This document shows, piece by piece, positions 12,656-47,062 of a DNA stretch of 64,000 bases. Every line of letters begins with the position of its first letter. The first letter of the stretch is position 1. The notes below the pieces were generated by a model. It saw nothing but the letters and a program-made list of their open reading frames with translations, was not told where the DNA came from and searched no databases. The position numbers and the translations under genes are program-made. Source of the stretch: an uncultured bacterium (GTDB lineage Bacteria; Verrucomicrobiota; Verrucomicrobiia; Limisphaerales; UBA11358); NCBI GenBank assembly GCA_963723125.1, contig CAVRPQ010000004.1, positions 230,644 through 294,643 on the forward strand. The letters are read 5' to 3'.

Positions 12656-13711
12656 TCAAGGCGATTCCAAGCGGTAAAAAACGGCGCTCTGACTGGGGTC
12701 TGGAGTGACAACGTACGGACTGGTCGTGCCGGGCAAGTCAGACCAGTTGCCGCCAACCAGCGAATTTGTCTGAACCTGCAAATGGCAGACGATATTGGTC
12801 GGCCAACTCAAGGTGAAACTTCCATTGGAGGATTGCGGCGTTACAGATATTGCCATTGGCGCGGTTTGTTCATAAACCCGCACGTAATCCACCTGCATCT
12901 CGGCAGGAAAAGTGGTGCTCGCCTCGACTTGAGCGTTTGTCGGAGTGCCGACGTAGGTTCCGCCCACCGCCAGATTCATGATGAAGAAGAATGGCGCGTT
13001 GAAAGGTGTCGACAAACCGGTATCGGTTTCATAAAGGTTCCCATCCACGTAAAACTGGATTACACCCGGATTCCAGACCAAATCATACGTGTGCCAGTTG
13101 GTGACGGAGTCCGGGCTTGGAAAGTTGTACTTGGCCGTTTTGCTGATTTCACCGCTGCTGGGGCCCCAGTGGAGGCTTCCCTGCACCCAAGTTGGAGTTG
13201 CTCCGCTATTTTCCACGACATCAATCTCTCCGCAGAGGGGCCAGCCAACCCCCGGAGAAGTAATATTGGTGCCCAGCATCCAAAGCGCCGGCCACAAGTA
13301 GCTGCCGGCCGGCAGTTTGGCGCGCCATTCAAAGCGCCCCCCGACCGGTGTGCTGTACAGGCCCTGGGTCTTCATTCGGGCGGAGGTAAAGCTGTAACCG
13401 CTCACGGATTGTTGTAGCGCCACAATGTGCAGCAACCCGTTGCTCACATAAGCGTTCTGCGAACTGCTGGTATAATATTCCAGTTCCTGATTGCCCCAAC
13501 CGCAATTATCGGGACAGTCACTGCCGAGATCGAAGGTCCATTTGGTCGTATCAATCGAAGTGCCGTTGAACTCGTCGCTCCAGACGATATTGGTATCGGC
13601 AAGCGCAATATTGCTCAACAATATCACAACGATGACCATCGCCAAGGCGGGAAGCGGTTTAAATAAGGATGTAGATTGAACAACAGAACCTTGATTACGT
13701 GGACAATACAT
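12656..13711 (-). CDS. GH16 beta-1,3(-1,4)-glucanase/laminarinase with C-terminal FYRL module (GH16-1)
   Basis: It has a signal peptide, then WSDEFNGTSIDTTKWTFDLG...GWGNQELEYYTSSSQNAYVSNGLLHIVA...GEIDVVEN. The 64-aa tail ends in AVFYRLESP. Confidence 0.85.
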   Translation of the reverse strand: MYCPRNQGSVVQSTSLFKPLPALAMVIVVILLSNIALADTNIVWSDEFNGTSIDTTKWTFDLGSDCPDNCGWGNQELEYYTSSSQNAYVSNGLLHIVALQQSVSGYSFTSARMKTQGLYSTPVGGRFEWRAKLPAGSYLWPALWMLGTNITSPGVGWPLCGEIDVVENSGATPTWVQGSLHWGPSSGEISKTAKYNFPSPDSVTNWHTYDLVWNPGVIQFYVDGNLYETDTGLSTPFNAPFFFIMNLAVGGTYVGTPTNAQVEASTTFPAEMQVDYVRVYEQTAPMAISVTPQSSNGSFTLSWPTNIVCHLQVQTNSLVGGNWSDLPGTTSPYVVTPDPSQSAVFYRLESP

Positions 13712-13738
13712 ATTTGAATGCCTTTAAAACGTTAGTAT

Positions 13739-13768
13739 ATTCTACTACAAATTGTGCGATTAAGTCAA
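13739..13768 (-). promoter_or_regulatory. Putative promoter of GH16-1 (TTGACT-N13-TGTAGTAGAAT)
   Basis: The minus strand reads TTGACTtaatcgcacaattTGTAGTAGAAT, about 28 nt upstream of the start. It shares its architecture with three other promoters in the island. Confidence 0.4.
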
Positions 13769-13966
13769 TATTATATTACAAAAACACGCTCTTTTGTTAC
13801 TAGCCTCCAAGCGAAAAACTGTACGTGAACGTTAAGTTTATGGGTTCTGTTCTAGGCGGTAGAACTACGCTGGCCTGAGGACTGCATTTGCAAGGATGTG
13901 TCTGAATTTAGCAGCAGGGGAGCAGTCGTCAGGTTTCATGGCTGGCGTGCCAAAGCCCTCAGACGG

Positions 13967-16900
13967 TCATGGCCCCAAGACGGTACGGTAGAAACGAACC
14001 GGATAGGCCGGGGAATTGGTATCCACCCAAAAGAATGGCAACAACGGCAAATTGGTTGTGAATATGGGAATCCAGGAAGTCAAGTTGGTGGAAGCCATGA
14101 GCGTGTAGTTCGTCCCTGTACTATTGGTGTTGATCCAAAATCCAAACTGGCCGTTGGTGATGGAAGCGCCATAGAGGGCAGGCACGATTGGCTGATTGGG
14201 CGTGGCACTGACCTGGATGGAGTTGGTGCTATCACAGCCGTTATTGACCGCTAAAACCACATAGTAATAGGTCGTCCCATTCGTCACCAAGGAATCAGTG
14301 TAGTTGGTAACTGTCAGTCCGCTGGACAACAGGGTGTACGGCCCACCGCTGACCACCGAGCGTTCCACGTTGTAGCTGGTGGCTCCGCTTACGGTGTTCC
14401 AACTCAAGGCCACCAGCGAGTTGCTTGCGGTCGCCGTCAAACCCACCGGCGCGACCGGCGGCAGGAGGAGAATTTCGATGCCGCTGGATTTGGCGTTGTC
14501 CTTGATGGTGACGTACTGGATGACAATCGTATTCGTGGTGTTAGGAGCCACCATAAACTGTTGGATGTTCGCAATGTCCTCGCCGCCGGACACGGCGAAA
14601 ACGTCGAAGTTCGTCAGGACTTCATTGCCGTTAATGAAAACGTTGAATATCCGATCGTTTGTGGCAGTCCAATAAATTTCTGCAAAGTGGAGGCGCACCA
14701 AGTAGTTCATGCCCTGCGTCAAGTTGGTGAAAGTGTAGGTGAAGTTGCCGTAGCGTTCGGTTTGATAAACCGCCTGGGGTGCGGGATTGGTAACTGCGCT
14801 GGTGTCGATTGCCGCCGTGGTCGAGGCGGCGGTGCCGCCCGAATAATATCCGTCCGTGATGAACTGGTTCGCCGCGCTGCCACCCGAGTTCACGGCCAAT
14901 TCGAAGGCGCCCAGTGTCGCGGCTGCCTCACTCGAGTTGGGGCTTTCGCCAAGAGAGTTCGTGGCTGAAACCACATAGTAGTAACTGGAGCAAGTGGAAA
15001 CGGCGGGGTCAACGTAGCTGTTCGCGGTGGGACTGGCGATGGTAGTGTACGGTCCACCGCTGACCAGCGCGCGTTTCACATTGTAAGCGGTTGCACCGGT
15101 GGAGGCGTTCCAACTCAGATAAACTGCCGCGTTGCCGGCACCCGCTGTCAATCCCGTTGGGGCGGCCGGAACCGTAGGCAACGGCGTACTCAAGCCAATC
15201 CAGTTGATACTAAATCCATTAGTGAGCACTTCCAACCGCAGCGCCTGACTCCCGATGCCACCCGCCAGCGAAACCGTCGGCAAGGTGACCGTCTGCCAGG
15301 TCTGCCCGCCGCCGGTATTGGGAATGTTGACTGTGCCCACCACGGCGCCGTTGAGCCGCACCCGCAGTTGACCGCCGGCCGCAGGTGCAGCCACACGGAG
15401 GCTGATGGTGTAGTTGGCCGTGGGATACGGCAGGTTGACCGTGTATTCCAGCCATTCACCGGTGTTGAGCGAGTTCACGTCGTAGCCGCCGCCCGTGTCC
15501 GAGGTGGGTTCAATCCCCACGTCATCCGACCGGTAAACCCCGCCCGGATTGCCTACCGTGGTGTTGTAGTAGGCCACACTCTCGCCGCCCGTATCGTAGT
15601 TCTCCGCTTGGATGATGTTCGTGCCTCCCGACATGGTGGGAACGGTCCCCCCAAAAGGCTCTTGCGGCTGCGAATAAACTTGCAGTTCCGTCAGCGAATA
15701 ACCAGTGCCCGGCAAACCTTGCTGCGTCCCGTTAATCTGCACATAGCGGCCGCGGCCCGAAACCAGAATGTCCTCTGTGCCGCCGACGTCATTGTTGGTG
15801 CTGAACACTGCCGTCCAGTTGGTTCCGTCAGGTGAAATTTGGATCGTGTAGCTGCTGGCATAATTGCTGTTCCACAGCAGCCGGACCCGGGACAGGTCTT
15901 TGATTAAACCAAGATCCACCTCAATCCATTGCGGGTCGCTGGCCAGCGAGGTCCAGGCGGTGGTGGTGTCTCCGTCCACAGCGGCCGCGCCCGGAGTGTT
16001 GGTGGAAAGCACGGAGGAAACCGTGACCGGCTGGTGCAGCGCCGCGTTGGCCAGATCGCTGGAAGGCACCGACCCCACCGTGAAGGATCCCGTCAAGCGG
16101 ATGTCGCGCGAGGAGGCCCCGACCAGGACTTGAAACGTGCCCGGCGTCACAATCCAGCCGCGCGCGACCGGGTCCCAATTGGCCAGGTCTTCCCAATCCA
16201 GATTGAAGGTGACGGGCTGTGTCTGGCCCGGCGAGAGGGAGATTCTTTGGAATCCTTTGAGCAATTTCGGCGGTTCACCGGCGGCGGCGGGAAAGCCCAG
16301 ATAGATCTGAGGCACTTCTGCGCCCGTTTGGCCGCCGGTATTGGTCAAATCAAACCCGATTTGAACCTGGCCCGAAGGACTCACCGCGCTGACCGTCAGA
16401 TTGCTGTAACCGAACGTCGTGTAGGACAATCCGAATCCAAACGGGAAAAGCGGAGTCACGTTGTTGGCGTCATACCAGCGATAACCGATTTCCAACCCTT
16501 CGGAGTAGGAAGCTTGAAGGTTGATGCCGGGCCATTGGGCGGTGGTGCTCGTGGGCACCTGGCTCGCCGAGGGAGGAATGCTGACCGGTAGTTTTCCTGA
16601 AGGATTTACGTCCCCGAACAGGACTTGAGCCAGCGCGTTGCCATTTTCCTGCCCCGGATACCACGCCATCACAATTCCCGCGACCTGATTGGCCCACGGC
16701 ATCAACGTGGCAGAAGACTCATAGACCACAACAATCGTGTTGGTGTTCACGGCAGCCACGGCGCTGATGAGCGCATCTTCGTTGTTGGGCAGCGACAGGC
16801 TGCTGCGGTCGGAACCTTCGCTGGTTTGCTGGCCGACACACACAATCGCAACGGTGGAATTACTGGCTTGTTGGACTGCGGCGGCGACGCTCGCTCCGTC

Positions 16901-18202
16901 ACCTTGGGCATAATTGATGGTGACACCGCCTCCAGCGCGGCTGGTTATTCCTGCCAGCGGCGTGATGTTGTAGGGCAGATTCACCCCCGCCGAACCCGCG
17001 CCGGTCGAGATCGGCGAAGTGCTGGCCGCCGAGCCGATGACCGCAATGGAATGCACGGACGATCCCAGGGGGAGCAACCCACCGTTGTTTTGCAACAGCA
17101 CAGTACCTTCCGCCGCCTCGCTGCGGGCAAACAGGGCATGCGCCGTGCTGGTCACGGTCGCATTCAGGTTGCCGGTGCTCGGATTATCGAACAAACCGAA
17201 TTGAAACATGCTGGTGAGGATGCGCTGCACCATGCCGTTCAGTTCTGAAGCCGGGACACTGCCTGATTGAATGGCGGTGGTGATGTCGCTGGCTGTAAAT
17301 TGGCCCTCATACATGTCCATATCGAGTCCATTATTCATGCCGTCCACGGTGTCGAAAGTCGCCCCCCAATCGCTCATGATCCAGCCATTGAATCCATACG
17401 CCTTTTTCAAGTCGGTATTGAGCGCCGGCAACTGGCACGCATGAACATTGTTCACCAGATTGTAAGAGGCCATGACCGCGCCAACCCCGGCCCGCACGGA
17501 CGCGCGAAACGGCGCTTCATAGATTTCCTGGAGGGTGCGTGGTTCCACGTCGGCGCTGACCGTTGTGCGGTCGGTCTCCTGATCGTTGCACACAAAATGT
17601 TTGGCGGTGGCGACGATGCCCTGGCTTTGGATGCCGGGAATTTCCGCCGCGGCCATCGCCGCGCTCAGAAACGGGTCTTCGCCATAGCCTTCAAAAGCCC
17701 GCCCGTCCTCGTAAACCCGCGCCATGTTCATCATCGGACCGAGCACCACGCCGACCCCCTTGCCCCGCTCCTCGTTGCCCAGCATCACCCCGTATTGGCG
17801 CGCCAGCGAAACATCCCAACTGGCGGCGAGGGCAATGGGCGCCGGAAACGCCGTCACATTATTGACTCCGTCAGCAACCCCGGCCGGCCCGTCCTGCAAA
17901 AATATCCAGGGAATGCCAAGTCGGGTGTTGTTGGCAATATTGCCTACATAGTTGCTGCCAGCCGGGCCGGCCGTGCCGTAAACCATGGCCGCCTCCTCAC
18001 TAAAGGTCATTTGAGCAAGCAAAAGGCTGGCGCGTTGGCTCGCCGAAAGAGTTGTGTTCGTCCAGGCCTGTGCCTGGAGATGGACCGGCATCGCGCAACA
18101 AAAACCGATGAAACAAACCGCGCGAATAACGTTCAATGGAATCCTCAGGCGAAAACAACGCATAAGATGACCCCGCCGGCGTTCTGCCGGACAATTTTTC
18201 AT
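13967..18202 (-). CDS. GH3 beta-glucosidase with F5/8-type-C (discoidin), CBM6-like, FN3 and malectin-like modules plus a C-terminal FYR module
   Basis: GH3 motifs are FLQDGPAGV, KHFVCNDQE and SDWGA. The discoidin-like stretch is DGDTTTAWTS...QWIEVDLG. The CBM6-like stretch is IIQAENYDTGGESVAYYNTT. The malectin-like stretch is RLHFAEIYWTATNDRIFNVFINGNEV. The tail is ...VRFYRTVLGP. An alternative start is M14 at 18163. Confidence 0.9.
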   Translation of the reverse strand: MKNCPAERRRGHLMRCFRLRIPLNVIRAVCFIGFCCAMPVHLQAQAWTNTTLSASQRASLLLAQMTFSEEAAMVYGTAGPAGSNYVGNIANNTRLGIPWIFLQDGPAGVADGVNNVTAFPAPIALAASWDVSLARQYGVMLGNEERGKGVGVVLGPMMNMARVYEDGRAFEGYGEDPFLSAAMAAAEIPGIQSQGIVATAKHFVCNDQETDRTTVSADVEPRTLQEIYEAPFRASVRAGVGAVMASYNLVNNVHACQLPALNTDLKKAYGFNGWIMSDWGATFDTVDGMNNGLDMDMYEGQFTASDITTAIQSGSVPASELNGMVQRILTSMFQFGLFDNPSTGNLNATVTSTAHALFARSEAAEGTVLLQNNGGLLPLGSSVHSIAVIGSAASTSPISTGAGSAGVNLPYNITPLAGITSRAGGGVTINYAQGDGASVAAAVQQASNSTVAIVCVGQQTSEGSDRSSLSLPNNEDALISAVAAVNTNTIVVVYESSATLMPWANQVAGIVMAWYPGQENGNALAQVLFGDVNPSGKLPVSIPPSASQVPTSTTAQWPGINLQASYSEGLEIGYRWYDANNVTPLFPFGFGLSYTTFGYSNLTVSAVSPSGQVQIGFDLTNTGGQTGAEVPQIYLGFPAAAGEPPKLLKGFQRISLSPGQTQPVTFNLDWEDLANWDPVARGWIVTPGTFQVLVGASSRDIRLTGSFTVGSVPSSDLANAALHQPVTVSSVLSTNTPGAAAVDGDTTTAWTSLASDPQWIEVDLGLIKDLSRVRLLWNSNYASSYTIQISPDGTNWTAVFSTNNDVGGTEDILVSGRGRYVQINGTQQGLPGTGYSLTELQVYSQPQEPFGGTVPTMSGGTNIIQAENYDTGGESVAYYNTTVGNPGGVYRSDDVGIEPTSDTGGGYDVNSLNTGEWLEYTVNLPYPTANYTISLRVAAPAAGGQLRVRLNGAVVGTVNIPNTGGGQTWQTVTLPTVSLAGGIGSQALRLEVLTNGFSINWIGLSTPLPTVPAAPTGLTAGAGNAAVYLSWNASTGATAYNVKRALVSGGPYTTIASPTANSYVDPAVSTCSSYYYVVSATNSLGESPNSSEAAATLGAFELAVNSGGSAANQFITDGYYSGGTAASTTAAIDTSAVTNPAPQAVYQTERYGNFTYTFTNLTQGMNYLVRLHFAEIYWTATNDRIFNVFINGNEVLTNFDVFAVSGGEDIANIQQFMVAPNTTNTIVIQYVTIKDNAKSSGIEILLLPPVAPVGLTATASNSLVALSWNTVSGATSYNVERSVVSGGPYTLLSSGLTVTNYTDSLVTNGTTYYYVVLAVNNGCDSTNSIQVSATPNQPIVPALYGASITNGQFGFWINTNSTGTNYTLMASTNLTSWIPIFTTNLPLLPFFWVDTNSPAYPVRFYRTVLGP

Positions 18203-18277: not shown

Positions 18278-18688
18278 TCAATTCAACTTGGCCGTGCTCA
18301 CTGAAATGAACCATGACAAATCCCCCGACGTGGTACTGGCCGGCCAATTATCCGTATTGGCGGTGGGCGTCGCTGGTTTTTCGTTGATCATTGAAGTATC
18401 CGTCCACTGCCTGACCGCTGAATGTCCGTCGGCATACGCCAGCACACTGCCATTACCATGCAACACCGCGGGACTATTAAACCACTGGGTGGTGTTTCTG
18501 GGATCCAAGGCAAAAAAACCATCGTCAATACTGAAGGGACTTTCTTCGATAAAGACCCAAATCCTGCTCGGACCCGGAGGCGACATGTTTGCCGACTTCG
18601 TGTAGTATGCCCAGCCAGTAACAGCACCACCGCTTGGAGGAGCCCATACGCGCTGTCGTGTTGCCTGGACTGTCCATGGGCTGCACAT
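18278..18688 (-). CDS. C-terminal part of the prepilin-type protein, carrying the H-X9-DG motif (frame-shifted relative to 18525..19226)
   Basis: [13 protein letters not shown] matches H-X9-DG. It is preceded by [22 protein letters not shown], typical of this family. Confidence 0.65.
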
Positions 18689-19226
18689 AGCAATTCATGG
18701 AATAGGTGCGCAGGGCGTGCGCTGAAAAAGCTCCGCCGCCACGGGGAACGACGGTGTGGTCGGCCGGGCAGTGGTAAACGTTGATGTTATTGATATACGG
18801 GTAGAGCAGGCCCGCCATGATCCACCAACTATACTTGGAACCTCCCGGATAGGGACCACCCATCACCTCTGACCCGTTCGCCGCCTGCATATTACCAGGG
18901 CACCAATCGGCACAATTCCCTCCAGGTTGCATAACAGTCTGTTGCCGGGGGTCTGAGTTGGGATTTTCCTGACTTTGACCATTAAGACCCCGGTTGGGCA
19001 CCAGATTATCCTGATTGTCGCCGGCATACATGACCCACGCCGTGATCAACTGCTTCTCGCTGGCCAGACATTGCATGGCGAGGGCCTTCTGCTTGGCCTT
19101 GGCCAGCGCCGGCAACAGCATCGCCGCCAGGATTGCAATAATGGCGATGACCACCAATAACTCAATCAATGTAAAACCGCATGAACAGTAACCGTGCCGC
19201 CTGTTCTTCATTCGATCTGTTTTCAT
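18525..19226 (-). CDS. Prepilin-type N-terminal cleavage/methylation domain protein (N-terminal part; gene interrupted by a frameshift)
   Basis: It has the [33 protein letters not shown] pilin-like leader. Meaningful sequence ends near ...[21 protein letters not shown], where the other frame takes over. Confidence 0.75.
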
Positions 19227-19341: not shown

Positions 19342-22300
19342 TCACTGAGCCACGGCCCGATAAAACCGCGCCGCCCCACCGCTCGTGCTGTCGGTCACCG
19401 TGATCGTCCCACCGGTTCCGGAAATGTTACTGGCACCGGCCAACGCCTGCCAACTGGCCGGGTTCAAACTGGTGCTGTAATACACATAATACGTATACCC
19501 GCTTGTGGTCGGGACTTTGATCGAAACCACACCACCGCTGACTGATGCACTCAACGAGAACGAAGGCGCAGGCGCAGTATACGGCACAAACATGTAGAAG
19601 TGCGCGTTTATGCTTCCCGTCGCGCTTCCCGGCGGCGCCGTCACTTTCAGCGTTTGGACTCCACTCAGCGATTCCACCACATTGGTGCCGTTATTCATCA
19701 ACGGCACCCAATGCCACGATTGGAATCCGTTGGCATTGGCATCCGAGAACGTGCCCAAAGTTTGGGTCGTTTGGCTCATCGTCCCTCGGCCCGCAGTCAC
19801 CAGGCTCATTGTCGCATTGGTGTAGGGTCCGCCATTGGCCAGCCGCCCATAGATAACGTAGCTGTTGCTCGGGAAGGTACGCGTATAATTCAGCCATGTC
19901 CCCGGCGGCCACCAAGCCACATCAAAGTCCGTATTGGTCGTTGGCACAGCCTCATTGGGTACGTCCTCAAAGGGCGGCACTGCGCTTGCACCCTCGTTAA
20001 TCAACTTGTCTCGCAGAAAATCGAGGTTGGTTTCCGTGCCTACGGCGGGATTACCGCCAGGGCTAGTGGCACCGCCATCAAACCGGTAGAGGTACGTCTC
20101 AGCCGTCGTTACGTTCGTCGTGCTGAAATCCTCACCGTACACCGCGGCATTGGCAAAATTGTTGCCAGGATAGCCGTAATAACTGTTGGTGGCCGCAGCG
20201 GTAGTGGCAGTCTCAAGGGGATTATCAATCCACACGCCCCCATTGAAATCGAAATCCCCGGCCTCGATCATGAAGTTGGTCTGACTGAACGTGTCGAAGG
20301 TTCCCGTGACACCGTTGGACAAGCCATTGTTATCCACCGCACTGATGGCGAAGGCTACGCTTGGCTGGTTGGCAACCGCATTTAAGGGAACACTGACGGT
20401 CCAATTCGAGCTACTGCCCGTGAAGGTTTCCGGAGCCGAGACCCCATTAATGTAAGTTTGGATGTTGTTTGACGCAACGGTGCTGATCAAAGAACTGACC
20501 GTGAAGGTCAGCCTGTTGGTGCTGACAAACACATTCTGGCCCGGAGTCAGAATCGCCGGGTTGAAATTTTTGAGGTTCGGAGGCAATCCCAGAGTGGGGA
20601 TTGGAACAAATACGAAATCGATCAGATTGCAACCGAGGCCGCTTATGACTTGCAGCGTCTGCTGTCCCGATGGCAGGTTCACAACGGTCGGATTGAGACC
20701 GCTGGCGTCCGAGCCTAGCGGGACCCAAAAATACTGGCCCCAATTATCCACCCAACCGGGCGTCGCAGCATTCAAGACAAAATACCCGAGATTGGTGGTC
20801 GTAAACGTCGCCGTACCGGCCCCCGTGGTCACAAGTTGCAGAGTTTCAGAACCCCCATTCGGCCCATTGCCATAGGACATGCGGGCATAGATCAGATAAT
20901 AACCGCCGTTGGGATAAGGATTCCGGGTGTACATGAACCAATTGCCGGCATTGTTGTAGGCTATATTGACATTGTAGATCGCGGAATTGCTTTGCGCTAT
21001 GTACAATGGCAAATTGGGATCGCTGGCCACCTGCCAGGCCGTGTCGGTATTACGGTCTGGATAACTGGGAATCAGATTCACGCCATTCCCCGGAAGAGCG
21101 CCACCGGATAAGATGTCATAGTCAGTGCCGGGTGTGCCAAGCAGTCCAAAATAAGTGTTTGGCCCCGCCGCGTTGGTGGGTATCGGGTTTTGAATGAACT
21201 GGCCGCCATTATAGTTGTAGTCTTCCGCCGGGACGACGTAATCGTTGGGAGAGAACGTATCGAAGCTGGAGCTGGCGCTGGAAATCAAGCCGGCGCTGTT
21301 GTTGACCGTCATGCTCATCGTATAAAGAGTGTTGGAGCTCAAACCCGGCAACGTCACGAGCCAGTTGGTGCTGGTCCCGGAAAATGTAAGCTTGCTCGAT
21401 ACGGAAACGCCATTTTCCACCACCTGTATTGCATTGGTCGCGACGGTGGTTCCGGTACTCGACACAACGTTGAACGTGAAATTGGTGTTGGCAATATTAA
21501 ACAACTGCCCGCCGCTCGGCGTTATATTGCTGATGGTGGCCGGCTGAAATCCGCTGAGCTGGTTCAAGGTGCAATTATCCCAGTGAGGTGCTCCCGAAGA
21601 GTAGCTGGTCTGGCATAGATTCAAACTAAATTGCACATATGCCGTTCCCGCCGGGGCGGTCATGACGCCACTGGGTATTGAATTTGTAGGCCCTGGCGAT
21701 GCAGCTCCCACGGTGTTTGTATCCGGATCGCCGTTTGCCACGATTGTGGCCGGGTTATATGCATTGGTCACCGGCACATCGAACCAATTCAGATAGACGT
21801 TGGTTCCGCTGGTGCTTACAGCTCCGCTGGACGCCAAATTGTGAACGAGCGCGGGATTAATGATGCCTGACTTGTAATCCGCCAGGATGACGTTGGCTGA
21901 ACTCAGGAATTGCACCTCAACCCATCCGTCTTCGTAGTAAGCAGCACTGCCACCCGCAGTGTAGGTAGCGTCATTGTTCGCAAACAAACCGGAGCCGCCA
22001 CTGATATCGTCGCCCCCCTCACCGGCAGGAGCGTTTGAAACAAACTGCGAAAACCAGGCATCCGCGGAATAGGTGTAACCGGGGGCGGCAGCTATCTTCT
22101 GATAGACATACGAAATATAAGTGTTAGGCGCGGCGCCGTTTCCATACAAGCCCTGCTGCCACAATGAATTCGGCGGACTGAGAACCAGTCCGCTATTCAC
22201 AGCCCAACTCCAGCTTTCGGTGGTGACAGCCGACCATCCTGTAAAGCCTGGGGTAGCGTCAAAACCGGGGTTGGACAGGACATTCACTGCCTGGCTTCTG

Positions 22301-22407
22301 AAAGCAAAGCAGAGCGCAACCGCGGCACAAGCTGCCAAAACGAATCTACTGATCTGAGTGACTAGCGGGATTCTTGCTGTCTGACGGAATATTTCGGGCT
22401 TTTTCAT
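19342..22407 (-). CDS. Secreted multi-CBM (lectin-like) protein with no recognisable catalytic domain and a C-terminal FYR module
   Basis: It has a signal peptide and a CBM4/9-like N-terminal jelly roll (VLSNPGFDATPGFTGW...). An internally duplicated Ig-like plus CBM6-like unit follows (AEDYNYNGGQF... and IEAGDFDFNGGVW...). The tail is ...ARFYRAVAQ. Confidence 0.6.
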   Translation of the reverse strand: MKKPEIFRQTARIPLVTQISRFVLAACAAVALCFAFRSQAVNVLSNPGFDATPGFTGWSAVTTESWSWAVNSGLVLSPPNSLWQQGLYGNGAAPNTYISYVYQKIAAAPGYTYSADAWFSQFVSNAPAGEGGDDISGGSGLFANNDATYTAGGSAAYYEDGWVEVQFLSSANVILADYKSGIINPALVHNLASSGAVSTSGTNVYLNWFDVPVTNAYNPATIVANGDPDTNTVGAASPGPTNSIPSGVMTAPAGTAYVQFSLNLCQTSYSSGAPHWDNCTLNQLSGFQPATISNITPSGGQLFNIANTNFTFNVVSSTGTTVATNAIQVVENGVSVSSKLTFSGTSTNWLVTLPGLSSNTLYTMSMTVNNSAGLISSASSSFDTFSPNDYVVPAEDYNYNGGQFIQNPIPTNAAGPNTYFGLLGTPGTDYDILSGGALPGNGVNLIPSYPDRNTDTAWQVASDPNLPLYIAQSNSAIYNVNIAYNNAGNWFMYTRNPYPNGGYYLIYARMSYGNGPNGGSETLQLVTTGAGTATFTTTNLGYFVLNAATPGWVDNWGQYFWVPLGSDASGLNPTVVNLPSGQQTLQVISGLGCNLIDFVFVPIPTLGLPPNLKNFNPAILTPGQNVFVSTNRLTFTVSSLISTVASNNIQTYINGVSAPETFTGSSSNWTVSVPLNAVANQPSVAFAISAVDNNGLSNGVTGTFDTFSQTNFMIEAGDFDFNGGVWIDNPLETATTAAATNSYYGYPGNNFANAAVYGEDFSTTNVTTAETYLYRFDGGATSPGGNPAVGTETNLDFLRDKLINEGASAVPPFEDVPNEAVPTTNTDFDVAWWPPGTWLNYTRTFPSNSYVIYGRLANGGPYTNATMSLVTAGRGTMSQTTQTLGTFSDANANGFQSWHWVPLMNNGTNVVESLSGVQTLKVTAPPGSATGSINAHFYMFVPYTAPAPSFSLSASVSGGVVSIKVPTTSGYTYYVYYSTSLNPASWQALAGASNISGTGGTITVTDSTSGGAARFYRAVAQ

Positions 22408-23404: not shown

Positions 23405-23446
23405 CATTGCAATTCAGTGTTACCCAAAAAAGCAAACGACAATGTT

Positions 23447-24265
23447 ATGAAAAAATTCCCTAAAATCGTCAGTGGTGCTATCGGCATGGCAATGCTTGCA
23501 TTCGCTGTTTCAACAGTACAGGCCCAATTGATTGATGTTGATTTCAACGGCAACTCAGTCGGCGTGGATTACGGCGGCGGCGGCGTTGCTACTGGGCCGA
23601 CGATGTCCGGTGCGGCAGTTATTGGTTCCGCAGGTGACCAATGGAACGGAATCGCCGATAGTGCTTATACCTTCTCGGCTTATCCAAATGGCATAACTTC
23701 TACCGCGCTTCCTCTGATTTACTCAACCGGGATTAACTCGCCGGTTACGATGACTATCGCGACCGATGGTGGTTCATACGATGCCAACGAGCCGGTTTGG
23801 GGAAACACCAGCGCCTTTACCACTGCCGGCAGTCCGTACTCCGATCTGATGCAAGATTTGATCTACGCAAACGCTGCGGGCGGGGGGACCATTACGTTGA
23901 GCGGTCTTGCGGCAAATCAAGCCTATAACTTGGTTCTCTATAACGCGGGCGACCAAAATGTCGGCACTGGCCGTGCCACCAGTTTCACGGTCAACGGTGT
24001 TACCCAGAGCAGTACGTGGGATGGCTTAACCAGCACGTTGGTCGCAGGGGTTGACTATGTTAATTATGCATCAACCATGTCCGATGGTTCGGGTAACTTG
24101 GTTATTACGTTTGGACCGGGCAGTATAGCCGGAGTTTTATCCAGCGAGGGCGACTTGGATGGTTTCCAACTTGAAGTTGTGCCAGAGCCTGGCACATTGG
24201 CGCTTTTGGCTTCGGGTGCGGTTTTACTGCTTGGTTATCAGCGGCGCAAAACGTTGCGCGCGTAA
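23447..24265 (+). CDS. PEP-CTERM-anchored secreted protein with an unknown beta-rich domain shared with GH16-2
   Basis: The signal is MKKFPKIVSGAIGMAMLAFAVSTVQAQ and the C-terminus is VPEPGTLALLASGAVLLLGYQRRKTLRA. I prefer the ATG at 23447 over the track's GTG at 23417. Confidence 0.8.
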   Translation: MKKFPKIVSGAIGMAMLAFAVSTVQAQLIDVDFNGNSVGVDYGGGGVATGPTMSGAAVIGSAGDQWNGIADSAYTFSAYPNGITSTALPLIYSTGINSPVTMTIATDGGSYDANEPVWGNTSAFTTAGSPYSDLMQDLIYANAAGGGTITLSGLAANQAYNLVLYNAGDQNVGTGRATSFTVNGVTQSSTWDGLTSTLVAGVDYVNYASTMSDGSGNLVITFGPGSIAGVLSSEGDLDGFQLEVVPEPGTLALLASGAVLLLGYQRRKTLRA

Positions 24266-33710: not shown

Positions 33711-35162
33711 TTAAATCACCAGAGTCATTATCGAGTGCGCGGGGCTGCTGGTTTCCGCCGTTTTCCCCTCGATCGACAGGTAAAAAGGCTGTTCCGTCTC
33801 CGAGACATTCATCACAATCACCGCGATCCTGCCATCCTTGTTCAAAAAGGCGGTCGTCAATAAGTCGTCGTCCGTGGAAGAGCTGATAATCCGGCGCGCG
33901 CCCGGGCGGACAAATTTTGAAAAATGGCCGAGGTAATAGTAGGAACTCATGTAAGTCAGCTCTCCGGTTTCGGTATTGGCATGAATCGGGGCGAAGCAAT
34001 AGTTTTGGACATGATTCGGTCCGCCTTTCTGGTCCAGCAGGACGTTCCAATCCGTCCAGCCTGCGGACCCGTTGTTGAAATCGTTGATCATGGAAATTCC
34101 GTATTTTTCACCCCATTGCCATTCCTGGATGCGGGCCGGGTTAAACGGCGCGTTGCACCCTTCGGTGAACAACAGATGGGTTTTGGGAAAGGCCTCCTGC
34201 ACGCGTTTTACGTTTTCAAAGTAATTGCCCACGTACCAATGGAAAGCCACGCCCCATACGTATTGAGCGGCCTTGGGATCGTCCAAAACGACTTCGGCGC
34301 GGTGATACATGATGCTCCGGTTGTGGTCCCAAATCAGAATTTTCTTATTCCTAAGACCGCTCTTTACCATGGTGGGGCCCAGGTAATTCTTTACAAAATC
34401 ACGCTCTTCCTCGGCCGTATAAAGGCACGATTCCCATGGCTGGACCGCCATCGGTTCATTCTGCACCGTCACGCCCCAGATCGGAACGCCTGCTCTGGCA
34501 TAGGCTTTGATAAACTTGACGTAGTACCTGGCCCACGCATCGTAAAATTCGGGTTTCAATTTGCCCCCATGCAACATGTCATTGTTATCTTTCATCCAGG
34601 CCGGCGGACTCCACGGACTGGCAAAAATGGTGAAGTCCTTGCCGGCGGTTGCCAGCACTTCCTTGATAAAAGGAATGCGATATTTCAGATCGTGACTGAT
34701 GTTGAAGCTGGCCAGGGTGGCGTCGCCGTTCGTGACATAGGTGTAACTTTCGCTGGAAAAATCGCAGCTATGGATGGAGGTGCGCCCCAGTGTATAACCA
34801 ATGCCCTTTTGCGGATCAAAATAGGCCGTCAGGATCTCCCGCCGTTTGTCCTCCGGCAGTTTGTAAAATGTTTCCGCCGAAGCGTCAGTCAGGGCGCCGC
34901 CTACACCCAGCACGGTCTGAAACTCCTTGGAAGGATCCACGAAAATGCATTCTTGCTTTTCGGTGCGCTGGGGTAAATCGGTAAAAGAGATTTCACCAGC
35001 CTTGGCCAGCCGCTGGCCCGTATCCTTCGCAGTCACGTAAACGATGACCGGCTTGGACGTAAAATCGGCGGCGGGGCTTTGGTCCGCTCCCATTGCCCAA
35101 GTTAACACGGTTACACCTGTAAACAGGCCCGGTAAGATTGTGGAAATCAATCGGCGTGTCAT
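33711..35162 (-). CDS. GH30 glycoside hydrolase (glucosylceramidase / beta-1,6-glucanase type)
   Basis: GVGGALTDASAETFYKLPEDKRREILTAYFDPQKGIGYTLGRTSIHSCDFS closely parallels the GH30_1 signature region. A signal peptide is present. Confidence 0.85.
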   Translation of the reverse strand: MTRRLISTILPGLFTGVTVLTWAMGADQSPAADFTSKPVIVYVTAKDTGQRLAKAGEISFTDLPQRTEKQECIFVDPSKEFQTVLGVGGALTDASAETFYKLPEDKRREILTAYFDPQKGIGYTLGRTSIHSCDFSSESYTYVTNGDATLASFNISHDLKYRIPFIKEVLATAGKDFTIFASPWSPPAWMKDNNDMLHGGKLKPEFYDAWARYYVKFIKAYARAGVPIWGVTVQNEPMAVQPWESCLYTAEEERDFVKNYLGPTMVKSGLRNKKILIWDHNRSIMYHRAEVVLDDPKAAQYVWGVAFHWYVGNYFENVKRVQEAFPKTHLLFTEGCNAPFNPARIQEWQWGEKYGISMINDFNNGSAGWTDWNVLLDQKGGPNHVQNYCFAPIHANTETGELTYMSSYYYLGHFSKFVRPGARRIISSSTDDDLLTTAFLNKDGRIAVIVMNVSETEQPFYLSIEGKTAETSSPAHSIMTLVI

Positions 35163-40869: not shown

Positions 40870-42288
40870 ATGAGCCCGCCTGACGTTCAAAATCAAATGA
40901 AAGCACCGCCTGTAATTGGGCCCATTAAGGTTCCTCGTGCAAGTCTGACGGTCATGGAGAAGCTGGGTTACGGCCTTGGTGACACCGCTTCGCATTTTGT
41001 CTGGGACATGGTCGGCTTCTGGCTGCTGATTTTTTACACCGACGTTTTCAAGATTCCTCCGGCGACCGCCGGCACCATTATGCTGATCGGCCGTTTCTGG
41101 GACGTGGGCATTGACCCGGCCATCGGCGTCATCTCGGACCGGACTCAGACGCGCTGGGGCAAATTCCGTCCTTACATTCTTTTCGGTGCGGTTCCTTACG
41201 CGATTTTGGCGGTTCTGACATTTACCACGCCGAATTTTGGTGAGACGGGCAAAATTATTTACGCCTGCGCCACCTACGCCCTCTTGATGACCGCCTACGC
41301 GGCGGTTAATATACCCTACTCTTCCCTGGCTGCGGTGATGACCTCGGACACTTATGAGCGCGCGGGTGTTAACCAGTATCGTTTTATCTGCGCCTTTACC
41401 GGCCAGCTGGTGGTCACCGGGTTGGCGCTGACGCTCGCAAAATATTTTGGGGGCGGCAATGAGGCGATGGGCTATCAACACACCTTGATCCTGTTTGGCT
41501 GCCTGAGTGTGGTCTTCTTTTTCATCACCTTCAGGACAACCAAAGAGCGGGTGGAACCGTCAAAATCTCTGGAGGGCTCGGTCGGTGAGGATCTGGGGAA
41601 TCTCTTTAAGAACCGGCCTTGGATCATCCTCGCTCTGGTGGGTATCATCTCCTTCGTCATGTTTGCCATGCAGAATGCGGCGATTGCCTACTATTTCAAG
41701 TATTACATTGGCAAAGAAAATAACGTTCAGTTGTTCAACGTGATCGGTACGATTGCCCTGATTGTTGCCTTGCCGTTTACAAAGCCATTGGCCAGGAGAT
41801 TTGGCAATCGAAATGTCTTCATTGCCAGCTCCCTGATTTCAGGCGCCTTCTTTATTTCGCTCTACCTGCCCGGAGAGAAAAGCCTTGTCACCATCTATGT
41901 GTTGAATATCTGCGCAAAAATGGCCTATGCCCCCGCTGTCCCTTTGCTGTGGACCATGATCGCCGATGCGGCCGATTATTCCGAGTGGAAAATGGGCAGG
42001 CGGGCGACGGGCCTGTGTTTTTCTGCGGCAACCTTTGCGCAAAAAGCGGGATGGGGCATCGGAGCCGGCATCGCCGGCTGGCTCCTGGCAGCATTTAACT
42101 ACGTCCCTAATGCCATACAAACCCAAACGGCCCTGACCGGCATCAAGTTGCTGATTTCCGTGATTCCCGGGATATTGTATATGTCCTGCGCCGTGTTCAT
42201 GATTTTCTACAACATCGATTCAAAGACCGGTGACTTGATGAAAAAGGACCTCGATGCGCGGAGAGCAGGAGAACAATCCACTGTTTGA
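40870..42288 (+). CDS. GPH-family MFS symporter (oligosaccharide/glycoside:cation)
   Basis: The sequence reads KLGYGLGDTASHFVWDMVGFWLLIFYTDVF...GRFWDVGIDPAIGVISDRTQTRWGKFRPYILFGAVPY. Confidence 0.85.
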   Translation: MSPPDVQNQMKAPPVIGPIKVPRASLTVMEKLGYGLGDTASHFVWDMVGFWLLIFYTDVFKIPPATAGTIMLIGRFWDVGIDPAIGVISDRTQTRWGKFRPYILFGAVPYAILAVLTFTTPNFGETGKIIYACATYALLMTAYAAVNIPYSSLAAVMTSDTYERAGVNQYRFICAFTGQLVVTGLALTLAKYFGGGNEAMGYQHTLILFGCLSVVFFFITFRTTKERVEPSKSLEGSVGEDLGNLFKNRPWIILALVGIISFVMFAMQNAAIAYYFKYYIGKENNVQLFNVIGTIALIVALPFTKPLARRFGNRNVFIASSLISGAFFISLYLPGEKSLVTIYVLNICAKMAYAPAVPLLWTMIADAADYSEWKMGRRATGLCFSAATFAQKAGWGIGAGIAGWLLAAFNYVPNAIQTQTALTGIKLLISVIPGILYMSCAVFMIFYNIDSKTGDLMKKDLDARRAGEQSTV

Positions 42289-45200
42289 TCCTTCAGGAAA
42301 TAATGGCTCGCCGCCCGCGCATTTTGAGATAAACTCCGTCTCTGATTGGCAAACTCACCAGATTCACGATGACATGAAACCCAAACTGTACCTCGGTAAG
42401 AATCCGTTTCAGATCTGCTCCGATCCCGTCCGCGGTGAGCAAGTCACGCTGGAGAGCGAGGATTATTACCGGATTGCCAATTACGACCGGATGCGGCCTT
42501 TTTTCATGACGGTGGTCAGCGACGCCGATCACTGGATGTTCGTTTCCAGCAACGGCGCACTCTCCGCCGGCCGCCGCACCGCCGACCTCGCGCTGTTCCC
42601 GTACTACACCGACGACAAAATCCGTGACATGGTGGAAGCCACCGGCAGCAAGACGATTGTGGTCGTCCACCACCGGAATCAGAGTCGGCTTTGGGAACCG
42701 TTTTCCGAACGTGGCCGGGGTATTTATCGAACCCGGCGGAACCTCTACAAGAATTTCCAGGGCAACAAATTGATCTTTGAAGAAATCAATGAAGATCTGT
42801 CACTGACCTTTCGTTACGGTTGGTTCAACAGCAACCGGTTTGGCTTTATCCGCCGGGCATGGCTGACCAATTCCGGGCCGGGCGGCGCGCGCATCCGATT
42901 GCTGGACGGCCTTCAAAACCTGATGCCCTGCGGAACCGGCAGTCAATTCAACCTTGAATACAGCACGCTGCTCGACGCTTACAAGCGGAGCGAGTTGATT
43001 TCCGAAACCGGCCTTGGTTTGTTCCGCCTTAGTGCCATCCCGGTGGATCGTCCCGAGCCGGCCGAGGCCCTCCGCGCCAACATCGTCTGGTCGCTGGGAC
43101 TCAAGCGCCAGCTCACCCTGCTCTCCTCCCTTCAGCTCGAAAACTTTCGCCAAGGCTCACCGCTTCGGGAAGAAACCGACGTGCGCGGCGAACGCGGGGC
43201 TTATTTCGTCCAGGCCACCATGAACCTGCGGCGCGGCCAGACTCTGAAATGGCTGCTCGCGGCGGATGTCGGACAAGGCCCGTCGGACGTGGCCGCCCTT
43301 GACCGGTTCTTGCACACGCCCGCCCGCCTCGAAAGGCTGGTCCGGGCGGACATTCACCTGGGTACCCGGGAACTGGAGCGGATTGTGGGCGCCGCGGACG
43401 GGCTGCAGAAAACAGCGCGCCCGTTGAGTAATGCACGACACTACAGCAACACATTGTTTAACGTGATGCGCGGCGGGATTTTTAACGACGGCTACAAACT
43501 CGACCCGGATGATTTGCTGTCGTTCGTCACCCATGCGGACAAAAAGGTTGCGCTTCGGCACGCCTCATTTTTCCGCCGGCTGCCGAAACCGACGCGCTAT
43601 GGCGAAATGGTGACTGCCGCTGCTGCCACGGGCGATCCGCAGCTTGAACGGCTGAGTCGAGAATACCTGCCCCTTACCTTCAGCCGCCGGCATGGCGATC
43701 CCACCCGGCCGTGGAACCGGTTTTCCATTGCCACCCGGAACGCTGACGGCACACAGATCCTTAATTACGAAGGGAACTGGCGCGATATTTTTCAAAATTG
43801 GGAGGCACTGGCGGTTTCCTTCCCGGGCTTTGTTTCCGGCATGATCTGTCGTTTCCTCAATGCTTCGACCGCCGATGGTTACAATCCCTATCGCATCACG
43901 CGCAACGGAATTGATTGGGAAGTCGTGGATCCGCATGATCCCTGGTCGTATATCGGCTACTGGGGCGATCACCAGATTATTTATCTGCTGAAACTCCTGG
44001 AGATTCTGGACCGGCACGATCCAACCACCTTGCAAGGTTTCCTCACGCGCGACATATTCGCTTACGCCAATGTCCCGTACCGCATCAAGCCCTACAACGC
44101 ACTTTTGACGGACCCGAAAGACACCGTCGTTTTCAACCCACAGATTGAAGCGCTCGTCCAGCAACGGGTCCACGCCGTGGGCACGGACGGCAGGCTGGTG
44201 CGGGACAAGAGTGGACAGGCGCGCCTGATCAATTTGACCGAGAAACTGCTGGTTCCAGTATTGGCCAAGCTTTCGAATTTTATCCCCGAAGCCGGCATCT
44301 GGTTGAACACGCAACGGCCGGAATGGAACGATGCCAACAATGCCCTCGTCGGCAACGGCGCCTCCATGGTCACGCTGTATTACCTGCGCCGACACCTGGC
44401 GTTCTGCCGCGAACTCTTTCACACATCAGCGGATGTCAAATTCAGCCTCTCCATCGAAGTTGCTGCATTTTTCGGCGCGTTGAACCGGATTCTCGATCGC
44501 CATCGTCCACTGCTGGCGGGAACATTTACCGACCAACAGCGCCATCGCGTGCTCGATGACCTGGGCCGCGCCGGGAGCTATTATCGCCAGCGCATTTACC
44601 AACATGGATTGTCTGGTCGAAAAACCTTCATCGCGGGCCAAAAATTGATCCGGTTTTTCGATTCGGCGCTGCAGTGGATCAACCATTCGATTCAGTCCAA
44701 TCGGCGGCCCGATGGACTTTTCCACGCTTACAATCTTGTGCGGTTCGAAAACCGGACTCGCCTTCCCATCCGCCGTCTTTACGAAATGCTGGAAGGCCAG
44801 GTTGCCGTGCTCAGTTCGGGCCATCTCCCGGCCGAGGATTCGTTGGAAGTGCTCACGGCGCTCAAGCACAGTTCGATGTACCGCCCCGATCAAAACAGTT
44901 ATCTGCTTTATCCCGACCGGCAGCTCCCGGCCTTTGTCGAAAAAAACAATATTCCCGCCAGGAAACTCAGCCGCTGCGCCCTCCTGCGGAAATTGCTGGC
45001 TGACGGCAACCGGCAGCTCATCGAGCGCGACATTGCCGGACGGGTTCACTTCAATGGCTCCATCACCAACGCCCGCGACATCCTCCGCATCCTGGAGCGG
45101 CTCGCCGGCAACGGTTACGCAAAACTGGTAAAACGAGACGCGGCTCAGGTGCTTGATCTGTTCGAGTGCCTCTTCGACCACGAATCCTTCACCGGGCGCT

Positions 45201-45835
45201 CCGGCACCTTCTTCGGTTATGAAGGATTGGGCTGCATTTATTGGCACATGGTTTCCAAACTTCGCCTGGCCGCCCAGGAAACTTATGTCCGCGCGCTGGA
45301 AACGGGGGCGCCACCGCGGCTCTTGAAACAGCTCGCCGAATGCTATTACGACATCTGTGCCGGGATTGGTGATTACAAAACCCCGGAAGTTTACGGGGCA
45401 TTTCCGATGGACCCCTATTCGCATACCCCGGCGCAAGGTGGCGCCCGCCAGCCGGGGCTGACCGGTCAGGTGAAGGAAGACATCTTATGCCGGTTTGGTG
45501 AACTGGGCGTAAGTGTTCGTGAGGGCTGCATCCATTTCGAGCCGCGGTTGCTGCGCCGGGAGGAGTTTCTTTCTTCCCCGGCTCCATTCTCTTATTTCGA
45601 CATAGCCGGCGCTGCACGGAAACTTCGGCTTAAAGCTGGCGCACTCGCGTTCACTTATTGCCAGCTACCCGTCGTCTATCAACTCGCGCCAAAAACGTTT
45701 CTGACGATCGCCTTTGCTGACGGCAGAAAGCAAAGGCAGGATGCCCTTTCGCTGGATCGGGAAAACACCCGCGCCATCTTTGAACGCACGGACATCATCA
45801 AATTAATCACCGTGGGGGTTCATCTGCCATCTTGA
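42254..45835 (+). CDS. Large cytoplasmic protein; candidate GH94/GH149/GH161-like glycoside phosphorylase
   Basis: The protein is 1193 aa with no signal peptide. EGNWRDIFQNWEAL resembles the RDxxQ(D/N) block, and RPEWNDANNAL resembles the (D/E)WND catalytic block that I recall from GH94-type phosphorylases. The ORF overlaps the GPH stop by 35 nt. An alternative start is at 42374. Confidence 0.5.
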   Translation: MRGEQENNPLFDPSGNNGSPPAHFEINSVSDWQTHQIHDDMKPKLYLGKNPFQICSDPVRGEQVTLESEDYYRIANYDRMRPFFMTVVSDADHWMFVSSNGALSAGRRTADLALFPYYTDDKIRDMVEATGSKTIVVVHHRNQSRLWEPFSERGRGIYRTRRNLYKNFQGNKLIFEEINEDLSLTFRYGWFNSNRFGFIRRAWLTNSGPGGARIRLLDGLQNLMPCGTGSQFNLEYSTLLDAYKRSELISETGLGLFRLSAIPVDRPEPAEALRANIVWSLGLKRQLTLLSSLQLENFRQGSPLREETDVRGERGAYFVQATMNLRRGQTLKWLLAADVGQGPSDVAALDRFLHTPARLERLVRADIHLGTRELERIVGAADGLQKTARPLSNARHYSNTLFNVMRGGIFNDGYKLDPDDLLSFVTHADKKVALRHASFFRRLPKPTRYGEMVTAAAATGDPQLERLSREYLPLTFSRRHGDPTRPWNRFSIATRNADGTQILNYEGNWRDIFQNWEALAVSFPGFVSGMICRFLNASTADGYNPYRITRNGIDWEVVDPHDPWSYIGYWGDHQIIYLLKLLEILDRHDPTTLQGFLTRDIFAYANVPYRIKPYNALLTDPKDTVVFNPQIEALVQQRVHAVGTDGRLVRDKSGQARLINLTEKLLVPVLAKLSNFIPEAGIWLNTQRPEWNDANNALVGNGASMVTLYYLRRHLAFCRELFHTSADVKFSLSIEVAAFFGALNRILDRHRPLLAGTFTDQQRHRVLDDLGRAGSYYRQRIYQHGLSGRKTFIAGQKLIRFFDSALQWINHSIQSNRRPDGLFHAYNLVRFENRTRLPIRRLYEMLEGQVAVLSSGHLPAEDSLEVLTALKHSSMYRPDQNSYLLYPDRQLPAFVEKNNIPARKLSRCALLRKLLADGNRQLIERDIAGRVHFNGSITNARDILRILERLAGNGYAKLVKRDAAQVLDLFECLFDHESFTGRSGTFFGYEGLGCIYWHMVSKLRLAAQETYVRALETGAPPRLLKQLAECYYDICAGIGDYKTPEVYGAFPMDPYSHTPAQGGARQPGLTGQVKEDILCRFGELGVSVREGCIHFEPRLLRREEFLSSPAPFSYFDIAGAARKLRLKAGALAFTYCQLPVVYQLAPKTFLTIAFADGRKQRQDALSLDRENTRAIFERTDIIKLITVGVHLPS

Positions 45836-46090
45836 ACATGAAACGACTCATCGCGGGGCAATGAATTGGCCGGTCGGTCAGCCGGTTTGATTTTTACATC
45901 CACTTCCATTCTTCGATCCGTTGCCCCCTTGTCAGTGCCGTAATCGGCGGTAAATCGGCATAACCAGAACTGTAACCATTTCATGTGACTGTCAAAAATG
46001 GTTTTTCAGTGTTAAACTTCTTCAAACTTGAAGAATTATCAACGGTTTCTTTCTTGTACCAAACCAAACAAGAAATCGGAGTGTGGCATT

Positions 46091-47062
46091 ATGCAAATCA
46101 AATCACCAATGAGGTGGCTGGCGATCGCGCTGGCAGTGGCGGGCGGATTGACATTGGCCAGCCTGGCGCAGGCTCAAGACATCTACTACTGGTGTTATTT
46201 CTATCCACCCTGGCCACCCAACAGTGCGCTGTACTCTGATTGGAACAACTACCCTGGCAACACTTCTGCTGTGAACTTTAACAATGTATTTGTTTTCACG
46301 AACGCAGTGCTGGACGAACCGGCGTCCGGCCTGGAAGTGATTTCGACCATTGGTGGTTATGGCAGCGGTTATGCTGACCTGAACGGCGGCGTGGGCGTTA
46401 CCTTTGCCAACGGCGATCTTGCGCTCGCTACCAACGACACCATTTGCATCTTGACTTTTACCGTCAATCCGACGCCGGGCATGGCGGCCTCGGGGACATC
46501 GTTTTATACCAATTACAACTGGATAGGAATACAGTTTTATCTGAATTGCGACAGCGGCGTTTACGATGGGATCCCTGTCGCCTATGCCGGATGGAATAAT
46601 CCGGGAAACTCAAACGGTATCGTTTGGAGCGGCAGCAATGTCACTTTGACGATAGATATGTCAAAACAGGTTGATACAAGTGCCAATCACTTTGGCGCAG
46701 TCTTTGTACCCTGGACCCAAGGTGGAACTAATCACTTTTATGGCTGTAACCTGGGCATTAATCCGACGGTTATATTTAATGATCCTGCCGGGAGTTCCGG
46801 GTTGCCTTACGATATTACGTTCAACTCCATCACATTTGCTTCGGCCCCGCCGCCGCCGCCGAACCTGGCCATCGGCCTTGTCGGCACCAATGTCATCGTC
46901 TCCTGGCCCGCCAGCGGCTCCTACACTTTGCAACAAAGCGCCAATATGGCGAAATTCAGTTGGTCGCCCTGGGGTTTTCCAGCCAACTCGAATAACGGCA
47001 TCTACAGTATCACGATCCCGGCGCCCACTAACACTTTGTTTTTCCGCCTCAGCGATCCGTAG
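46091..47062 (+). CDS. Secreted hypothetical protein with a C-terminal FFRL module
   Basis: The signal is MQIKSPMRWLAIALAVAGGLTLASLAQAQ, followed by a PPPPP linker. The tail is ...IVSWPASGSYTLQQSANMAKFSW...TNTLFFRLSDP. Confidence 0.5.
   Translation: MQIKSPMRWLAIALAVAGGLTLASLAQAQDIYYWCYFYPPWPPNSALYSDWNNYPGNTSAVNFNNVFVFTNAVLDEPASGLEVISTIGGYGSGYADLNGGVGVTFANGDLALATNDTICILTFTVNPTPGMAASGTSFYTNYNWIGIQFYLNCDSGVYDGIPVAYAGWNNPGNSNGIVWSGSNVTLTIDMSKQVDTSANHFGAVFVPWTQGGTNHFYGCNLGINPTVIFNDPAGSSGLPYDITFNSITFASAPPPPPNLAIGLVGTNVIVSWPASGSYTLQQSANMAKFSWSPWGFPANSNNGIYSITIPAPTNTLFFRLSDP

Follow-up and report, generated by a model that had tools for sequence, protein, structure and literature searches.

The C-terminal domains (CTDs) of type IX secretion system (T9SS) substrates are folded beta-sandwiches of roughly 70 to 100 amino acids that stand at the extreme C terminus of signal-peptide proteins, on many unrelated enzymes and adhesins and in several copies per locus. 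The PEP-CTERM/exosortase, LPXTG, GlyGly-CTERM, and MYXO-CTERM systems also place a C-terminal end on paralogous and nonhomologous exported proteins, and in tripartite sorting signals a short motif is followed by a transmembrane helix and then by an Arg cluster (bioRxiv 10.1101/2023.06.07.544157). SLH, choline-binding CW_binding_1, LysM, and GW repeats are terminal modules on varied enzymes and adhesins, often repeated for avidity. Verrucomicrobiota play a major part in polysaccharide degradation in soil, peat, and water, but little is known beyond PEP-CTERM of how they export enzymes and retain them at the surface. Here we describe a C-terminal module shared by five secreted proteins encoded in a stretch of 64,000 nucleotides (the window) from an uncultured bacterium of the Limisphaerales lineage (contig CAVRPQ010000004.1, positions 230,644 to 294,643). 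The module is predicted to be a compact beta-sandwich of the fibronectin type III (FN3) kind, and it is read, tentatively, as a domain for targeting to or retention at the cell surface.

A homologous module closes five proteins of the window

Six-frame listing and translation of the open reading frames (ORFs) in the window revealed a homologous module of 66 to 73 amino acids, ending ...F[YF]R[LAT]xx(x)-stop, at the end of five ORFs. Trp, Phe, and Arg are invariant in the alignment of the five tails, and a profile built from them recovers exactly these five in the window. A second profile was built from 38 modules from elsewhere, each less than 40% identical to any window tail. This window-independent profile ranked the five tails as the top five of 657 six-frame ORFs of the window (E values of 1e-13 to 2e-4), with every match on them located at the C-terminal end, which rejects a chance motif. 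The similarity of the tails is not due to chance, and the presence and homology of the five modules claimed in a preliminary description of this DNA are confirmed. Profile scans found no sixth copy in the window.

All five host proteins have N termini that resemble signal peptides (judged by eye). GH16-1 (12656-13711, minus strand) comprises a signal peptide and a glycoside hydrolase (GH) family 16 domain (PF00722), and its tail of 67 amino acids (12659-12859, minus strand) ends ...VFYRLESP, with the envelope of the profile match ending at the stop (independent E value [i-E] of 3e-13 with the window-independent profile, as for the others unless stated). The GH3 protein (13967-18202, minus strand) contains GH3 N- and C-terminal domains together with Fn3-like, F5/8-C, CBM6/35, malectin, and fn3 domains. 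Its tail of 71 amino acids (13970-14182, minus strand; ...RFYRTVLGP) diverges more than the other four, with an i-E of 1.4e-10, and of 2e-4 with the window-independent profile. A secreted protein of 1,021 amino acids without any Pfam or NCBIfam domain (19342-22407, minus strand) ends in a tail of 73 amino acids (19345-19563, minus strand; ...RFYRAVAQ; i-E of 1.6e-10). GH16-2 (30913-32649, minus strand), composed of a signal peptide, an N-domain of ~230 amino acids, and a GH16 domain, carries a tail of 66 amino acids (30916-31113, minus strand; ...IFYRLASP; i-E of 1.6e-12). The fifth host, a secreted protein of 344 amino acids (46028-47062, plus strand) with no Pfam or NCBIfam match, ends in a tail of 68 amino acids (46856-47059, plus strand; ...LFFRLSDP; i-E of 2.5e-13). 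Four of the tails are thus on the minus strand, and the positions in the preliminary description refer there to the reverse complement. In all five proteins the stop comes 4 to 5 residues past the Arg, that is, 3 to 4 past R[LAT].

The hosts had been described as five otherwise unrelated proteins. This holds for four contexts rather than five, because GH16-1 and GH16-2 are paralogues with 56% identity. Their tails share 86% identity in protein and ~90% in DNA (12656-12880 compared with 30913-31134, minus strand), including a stretch of ~78 nucleotides with only two differing sites, whereas protein identity between their catalytic domains is only about 50%. The near identity of the tails suggests gene conversion or a very strong constraint on the tail.

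The module belongs to a large family without a Pfam or NCBIfam model

Searches of Pfam-A (2025) and NCBIfam release 20 with the five tails gave zero matches even at an E value of ≤10, and for 48 diverse family modules no model recurred at an E value of ≤1. The absence of a named family, as noted earlier, is therefore upheld. Among these searches, fn3 (PF00041) was unmatched on all 5 window tails and the 48 modules, as were the T9SS CTD models TIGR04183/PF18962 and TIGR04131/PF13585. Sequence membership of the fn3, Por_Secre_tail, CHU_C, PEP-CTERM, and CBM families is excluded for lack of a model match. No chain of the PDB was matched in a sequence search with the module, a tblastn search of plasmids with a consensus-like module gave no match, and the domain is undescribed in the searchable literature on the motif, on sorting or T9SS in Verrucomicrobia, and on choice-of-anchor proteins. 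C-terminal targeting domains are a known concept, and the fold class is known as well; what appears new is the family, with its rule of usage and its lineage.

The family is large. When the representatives of 1.84 billion clusters (50% identity) were searched exhaustively with a profile, the search retrieved 16,036 proteins at an E value of ≤1e-3 and 1,082 at an E value of ≤1e-10. Family members with names are all from Verrucomicrobiota, and the names reflect the passenger domains only. The closest genomic relatives of GH16-1 (71 to 81% identity) are syntenic and come from metagenome-assembled genomes of soil and peat labeled Verrucomicrobiia, Limisphaerales, Pedosphaera, or subdivision 3. Seven of the related loci (L001, L002, L010, L029, L050, L067, and L070) are syntenic with the window despite titles outside Verrucomicrobia (Acidiferrales, Sulfopaludibacter, Limnocylindrales, Pseudomonadales, Baltobacteraceae, Saccharimonadales, or Bifidobacteriaceae), and these taxonomic labels look unreliable. 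At a minimum, the family merits a model of its own, which would annotate thousands of "hypothetical" C termini. With at least 16,000 clusters and a near-constant terminal position, the module could also serve as a computational marker for the surface and secreted proteome of uncultured Verrucomicrobiota.

The module is predicted to be a compact FN3-like beta-sandwich

The module has the consensus xPxLxI..G....SWP......LQ..TNL....W......VT.....FYRLxxP, within a domain of about 65 to 72 amino acids. AlphaFold2, given an alignment of 16 sequences, produced a confident all-beta sandwich (predicted local distance difference test [pLDDT] of 89). The model of the GH16-1 tail has six strands according to DSSP (residues 5-8, 15-18, 26-31, 40-41, 49-51, and 60-65), and a tandem model has seven shorter strand elements per module (DSSP; pLDDT of 70 to 84). 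The best, though weak, Foldseek matches in the PDB are FN3 domains (Tencon and cytokine receptors), with a probability of up to 0.99, an E value of 0.045, and a template modeling score of about 0.5. The module profile also weakly cross-matches canonical FN3 arrays (e.g., P0060), with per-domain E values of about 1e-3. In the resulting alignment, SWP, with its Trp, corresponds to strand B, the aromatic x-L-Q to strand C, the second Trp to C', and FYRL to the Tyr-Arg-hydrophobic "HYRV" of strand F. The spacing from Trp to Tyr-Arg is equal in the module and in canonical FN3.

In contrast to FN3 domains (PF00041), which have no positional rule, the module is almost always last in the protein, and it is shorter: its repeat period of 70 to 72 amino acids is about 25 residues below that of FN3. 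This period would leave no space for strand G, which is probably missing, as judged from the repeat spacing and the DSSP strings. On the strength of these models, the module is a compact, folded, FN3-like beta-sandwich and not a short sorting peptide, and the sorting tag of the preliminary description is not borne out in that form. The tripartite signals differ from the module in the same respects, since the module is a folded and repeatable domain, and they are rejected as its class because the tail sequences have no hydrophobic transmembrane helix. The resemblance to the T9SS CTD noted earlier survives in the beta-sandwich, the size, and the terminal position. It does not extend to membership, which is rejected because neither the type A nor the type B models match; the module differs further in its tandem arrays and its occurrence in Verrucomicrobiota. 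No T9SS CTD was among the top 50 Foldseek matches in the PDB.

The module is almost always terminal, singly or in tandem arrays

The position of the module was followed in two sets of sequences. The first comprises 79 related loci (1.3 Mb), fetched with the GH16-1 protein and scanned in six frames. It contains 133 module ORFs, all single copy, and every one of them (133/133) ends 0 to 3 residues before the stop. About 55 of the 133 are distinct from the GH16 with which the loci were fetched, although many of these 55 are orthologous to the GH3 and 1,021-amino-acid genes of the window. The second set is a global sample of the top matches, in which 143 proteins were counted after four canonical-FN3 cross-matches had been left out. 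A terminal copy is present in 136 of the 143 (about 95%), including all 36 single-copy proteins, and the exceptions resemble read-through gene calls or carry a further divergent copy. The remaining 107 proteins hold 2 to 9 tandem copies, joined by linkers of 0 to 4 amino acids in an array that runs to the C terminus.

Whether the module is strictly C terminal had been posed as a question. Nearly all proteins of the two sets end in the module, but not every copy is terminal, since about 60% of the copies in the top matches are internal. A mostly internal module had been regarded as a sign of an ordinary spacer, and by copy number this pattern is partly present, yet 165 of the 213 nonterminal copies are contiguous with the terminal one. 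Internal copies contain the same FYRLxxP, followed directly by PxL of the next copy. The fixed distance of 3 to 4 residues between motif and stop, remarked on earlier, is thus simply the boundary of the domain. Of the terminal copies, 57% have Pro as their last residue.

One alternative is that the tail is a genuine signal domain for export or sorting: a dedicated translocon of the outer membrane or a sortase-like enzyme would recognize the terminal copy and perhaps exchange it for an anchor, as is the case for the T9SS CTD. Consistent with such a signal, the module is strictly terminal on signal-peptide proteins with unrelated passengers, its size and fold are like those of the T9SS CTD, the Arg of FYR is kept in 92% of terminal copies compared with 75% of internal ones, and it alternates with PEP-CTERM ends (see below). 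However, no sorting model was matched, T9SS types A and B included, even at E values of ≤1 to 10, and arrays reach 9 copies. Cleaved sorting domains are not known to form such tandem arrays, and this repeatability argues against a cleaved signal of the T9SS CTD kind. The processing or secretion partner suggested by the preliminary description was found neither in the window, where no gene for such a function stands out, nor in six other contexts, and no domain of the T9SS machinery (SprA/Sov, PorV, PorU, or GldK-N) occurs in the 15 larger window ORFs scanned. T9SS is not known in Verrucomicrobiota. A sorting signal in this sense is therefore an unlikely explanation for the tail.

Alternatively, the module may be a passive FN3-like spacer or stabilizing cap, the terminal bias of which arose from the addition of cassettes at the 3' ends of genes in this lineage. 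Spacer domains typically form beads-on-a-string arrays, the conservation is limited to residues of the fold core, and the tails of the GH16 paralogues look homogenized in their DNA, suggesting cassette-like exchange. A spacer is nevertheless expected often to lie between domains, and neither in the five proteins of the window nor in the 133 ORFs of the related loci does the module ever separate catalytic from binding domains. Even the GH3 of the window has canonical fn3 and Fn3-like domains at its internal positions and the module only as a tail. With about 95% of carriers ending in the module, the rule of position speaks against an ordinary spacer, as does the loss of exactly the module from one GH16 orthologue (L075, 9236-10747), which ends ...TAPLRLGF-stop, cut precisely where the module begins, within its first residues, and is the only tail-less GH16 orthologue among about 79. 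A role as spacer or cap is accordingly judged improbable.

Carriers are diverse exported proteins, and the module alternates with PEP-CTERM

The cargo was surveyed with Pfam, within the top 150 of the 16,036 matches, in 60 family members that have at least 150 amino acids ahead of their first module. The most frequent domains were PATR (10/60), Ig_3 (7), and I-set (5), followed by DUF11, PKD, Big_7, LamG, GH16, GH3, cadherin-like, alpha/beta-hydrolase, lipase, and, in one member, RHS. The family also includes a GloVer "choice-of-anchor" repeat protein. The enrichment in carbohydrate-active enzymes (CAZymes) anticipated from the window is absent across the family, and a CAZyme-specific tag is rejected, because most global carriers are not CAZymes. 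The module is a general end of surface and extracellular proteins.

This range of cargo also argues against a substrate-specific carbohydrate-binding module (CBM), which would bind the substrate of the enzymes or another glycan. Glycoside hydrolases commonly carry small C-terminal CBMs rich in aromatic residues, and all five window hosts belong to a beta-glucan utilization locus. The conserved aromatics of the module, however, map onto the FN3 core, and among the 48 modules no CBM model recurred, the matches being single and at chance level (CBM53, E value of 0.027, and CBM31, E value of 0.16, on one module each). Together with the predominance of carriers that are not CAZymes, this makes a CBM very unlikely.

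That the carriers are secreted, as stated in the preliminary description for the five proteins, agrees with inspection of the sequences, by which most look Sec exported. A crude detector was positive for 88 of 118 module genes and 242 of 508 controls; it was unspecific and missed obvious signal peptides, and the assessment therefore relied on the inspection.

Two proteins near the tailed genes have the PEP-CTERM end PF07589, and among the window proteins scanned this model matches only these two, one at 23417-24265 (plus strand) and the other at 27021-27671 (plus strand), where it follows a CBM4_9 domain (PF02018). The distinction between tail and PEP-CTERM drawn earlier is confirmed. The two endings are mutually exclusive: in the related loci and the window, 16 ORFs have PEP-CTERM ends, and none of these is among the 139 module ORFs. 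They share both a locus and a passenger. Residues 1 to 253 of GH16-2 align with the whole mature PEP-CTERM protein encoded at 23417-24265 with 43% identity (BLASTP, E value of 1e-45), so that one passenger domain occurs with either C-terminal ending. This shared N-domain of ~230 amino acids has no Pfam match and behaves like a "choice-of-anchor" domain.

A possible role in surface targeting or retention

We tentatively infer that the tail is a C-terminal domain for cell-surface targeting or retention, the function that best fits its terminal position, its varied exported cargo, its alternation with PEP-CTERM, its repeatability, and its folded FN3-like structure. The module closes Sec-exported extracellular and surface proteins, singly or as a head-to-tail array reaching the last residue, and would remain uncleaved. 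After export, it may keep enzymes and adhesin-like proteins outside the cell through noncovalent binding to a component of the envelope, and additional copies could add reach or avidity. It would be an alternative to the PEP-CTERM end of the neighboring genes. The functional analogy that we favor is with the noncovalent surface-anchoring repeats, such as SLH, CW_binding_1, LysM, and GW. These have no relation in sequence or fold to the module and bind Gram-positive wall polymers, whereas the host of the module is diderm.

Several observations weigh against surface targeting or retention. The conserved residues, namely the Trp of strand B, the aromatic-x-L-Q of strand C, the Trp of C', and F-Y-R-L of the last strand, lie in the core of the FN3 fold and do not form an obvious ligand site, so that the sequence alone does not demand a binding function. 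The cargo survey covers the top 150 matches only, and the ranking by summed score from which they were drawn favors multicopy proteins. No conserved neighbor gene is common to six unrelated contexts of family members.

The predicted lack of strand G allows a different kind of binding, in which the exposed FYRL strand pairs with a partner by beta-augmentation and so docks enzymes into assemblies, in the manner of dockerin-cohesin pairs or donor-strand complementation. Candidate partners are pilin-like proteins, outer membrane proteins, and module-only scaffolds. The alignment of FYRL with strand F of FN3 and the short repeat period are compatible with docking, although this strand assignment comes from weak profile cross-matches and DSSP strings. 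Small secreted module-only proteins exist, and dockerins are likewise small C-terminal modules on glycoside hydrolases that have separate repeat-only proteins as possible scaffolds. Dockerins, however, bind cohesin through Ca-binding EF-hand-like helices, whereas here both kinds of protein carry the same beta-sandwich. Genes with a prepilin-type N-methylation motif adjoin module genes in many related loci; this adjacency is largely shared synteny and not independent evidence, and it is absent in other contexts. Docking is, overall, a very improbable account of the tail.

Within the window, the prepilin-type gene lies at 18525-19226 (minus strand), between the GH3 and 1,021-amino-acid genes. 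In the related loci (L001 to L079), 48 of 61 prepilin-type ORFs are within 1.5 kb of a module gene, and 17 have module genes on both sides.

The small secreted proteins (P0078, P0122, P0137, P0151, P0127, and P0059) come from metagenomes (loci L080 and L083 to L086) and are complete. Each has a signal peptide, an N-element of ~55 amino acids (YxIDWF..GGGG..Y.lSGT.GQPDAG..Y.L.GGFW), and 2 to 6 modules. The N-element of P0059 matches no Pfam family, and in the AlphaFold2 model of a complete small protein with two modules the N-element has a pLDDT of <50. The GGFW element also precedes the module in other proteins.

Beyond surface targeting or retention as such, it is conceivable, if rather doubtful, that the tail is the recognition and attachment domain of an undescribed surface-display pathway of Verrucomicrobiota, functionally equivalent to the T9SS CTD and PEP-CTERM. 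If so, the open edge of the G-strand-less FN3 fold might dock on a pilin-like or outer membrane partner, and module-only proteins could be the scaffolds on which tail-bearing glycanases and adhesins form arrays at the cell surface. The module offers a concrete handle for tracing such a partner or machinery.

Genomic context

The window contains a beta-glucan utilization locus. The enzymes of the locus are GH65, GH3, GH30, the products of three GH16 genes, and that of a GH2-like gene. A beta-phosphoglucomutase-like gene and a transporter-like gene (both read from translation) stand beside GH65, and the locus also contains a two-component system and three more transporter-like genes (all likewise read from translation) and an SGNH/TPR protein, in addition to the two PEP-CTERM proteins and the prepilin-type gene. 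GH16-3 (32805-33686) and GH30 (33711-35162) have no tail, and their N-terminal hydrophobic segments resemble export signals by eye. The tailed and tail-less enzymes fit a division between surface and periplasm in which the location of GH16-3 and GH30 is assumed.

Beside sugar transporters, an ORF of 1,193 amino acids (42254-45835, plus strand) gave no Pfam match at an E value of ≤1e-3. An exact direct repeat of 300 nucleotides (53374-53673 and 55048-55347) lies within the ORFs 53251-53991 and 54952-55665, the C-terminal halves of which are identical. A truncated galactokinase-like ORF is located at 48414-49205. Three ORFs look transposase-like by eye, no family search having been made (49669-51213, 56489-57328, and 62290-63465), and the right third of the window accordingly appears to be rich in mobile elements.

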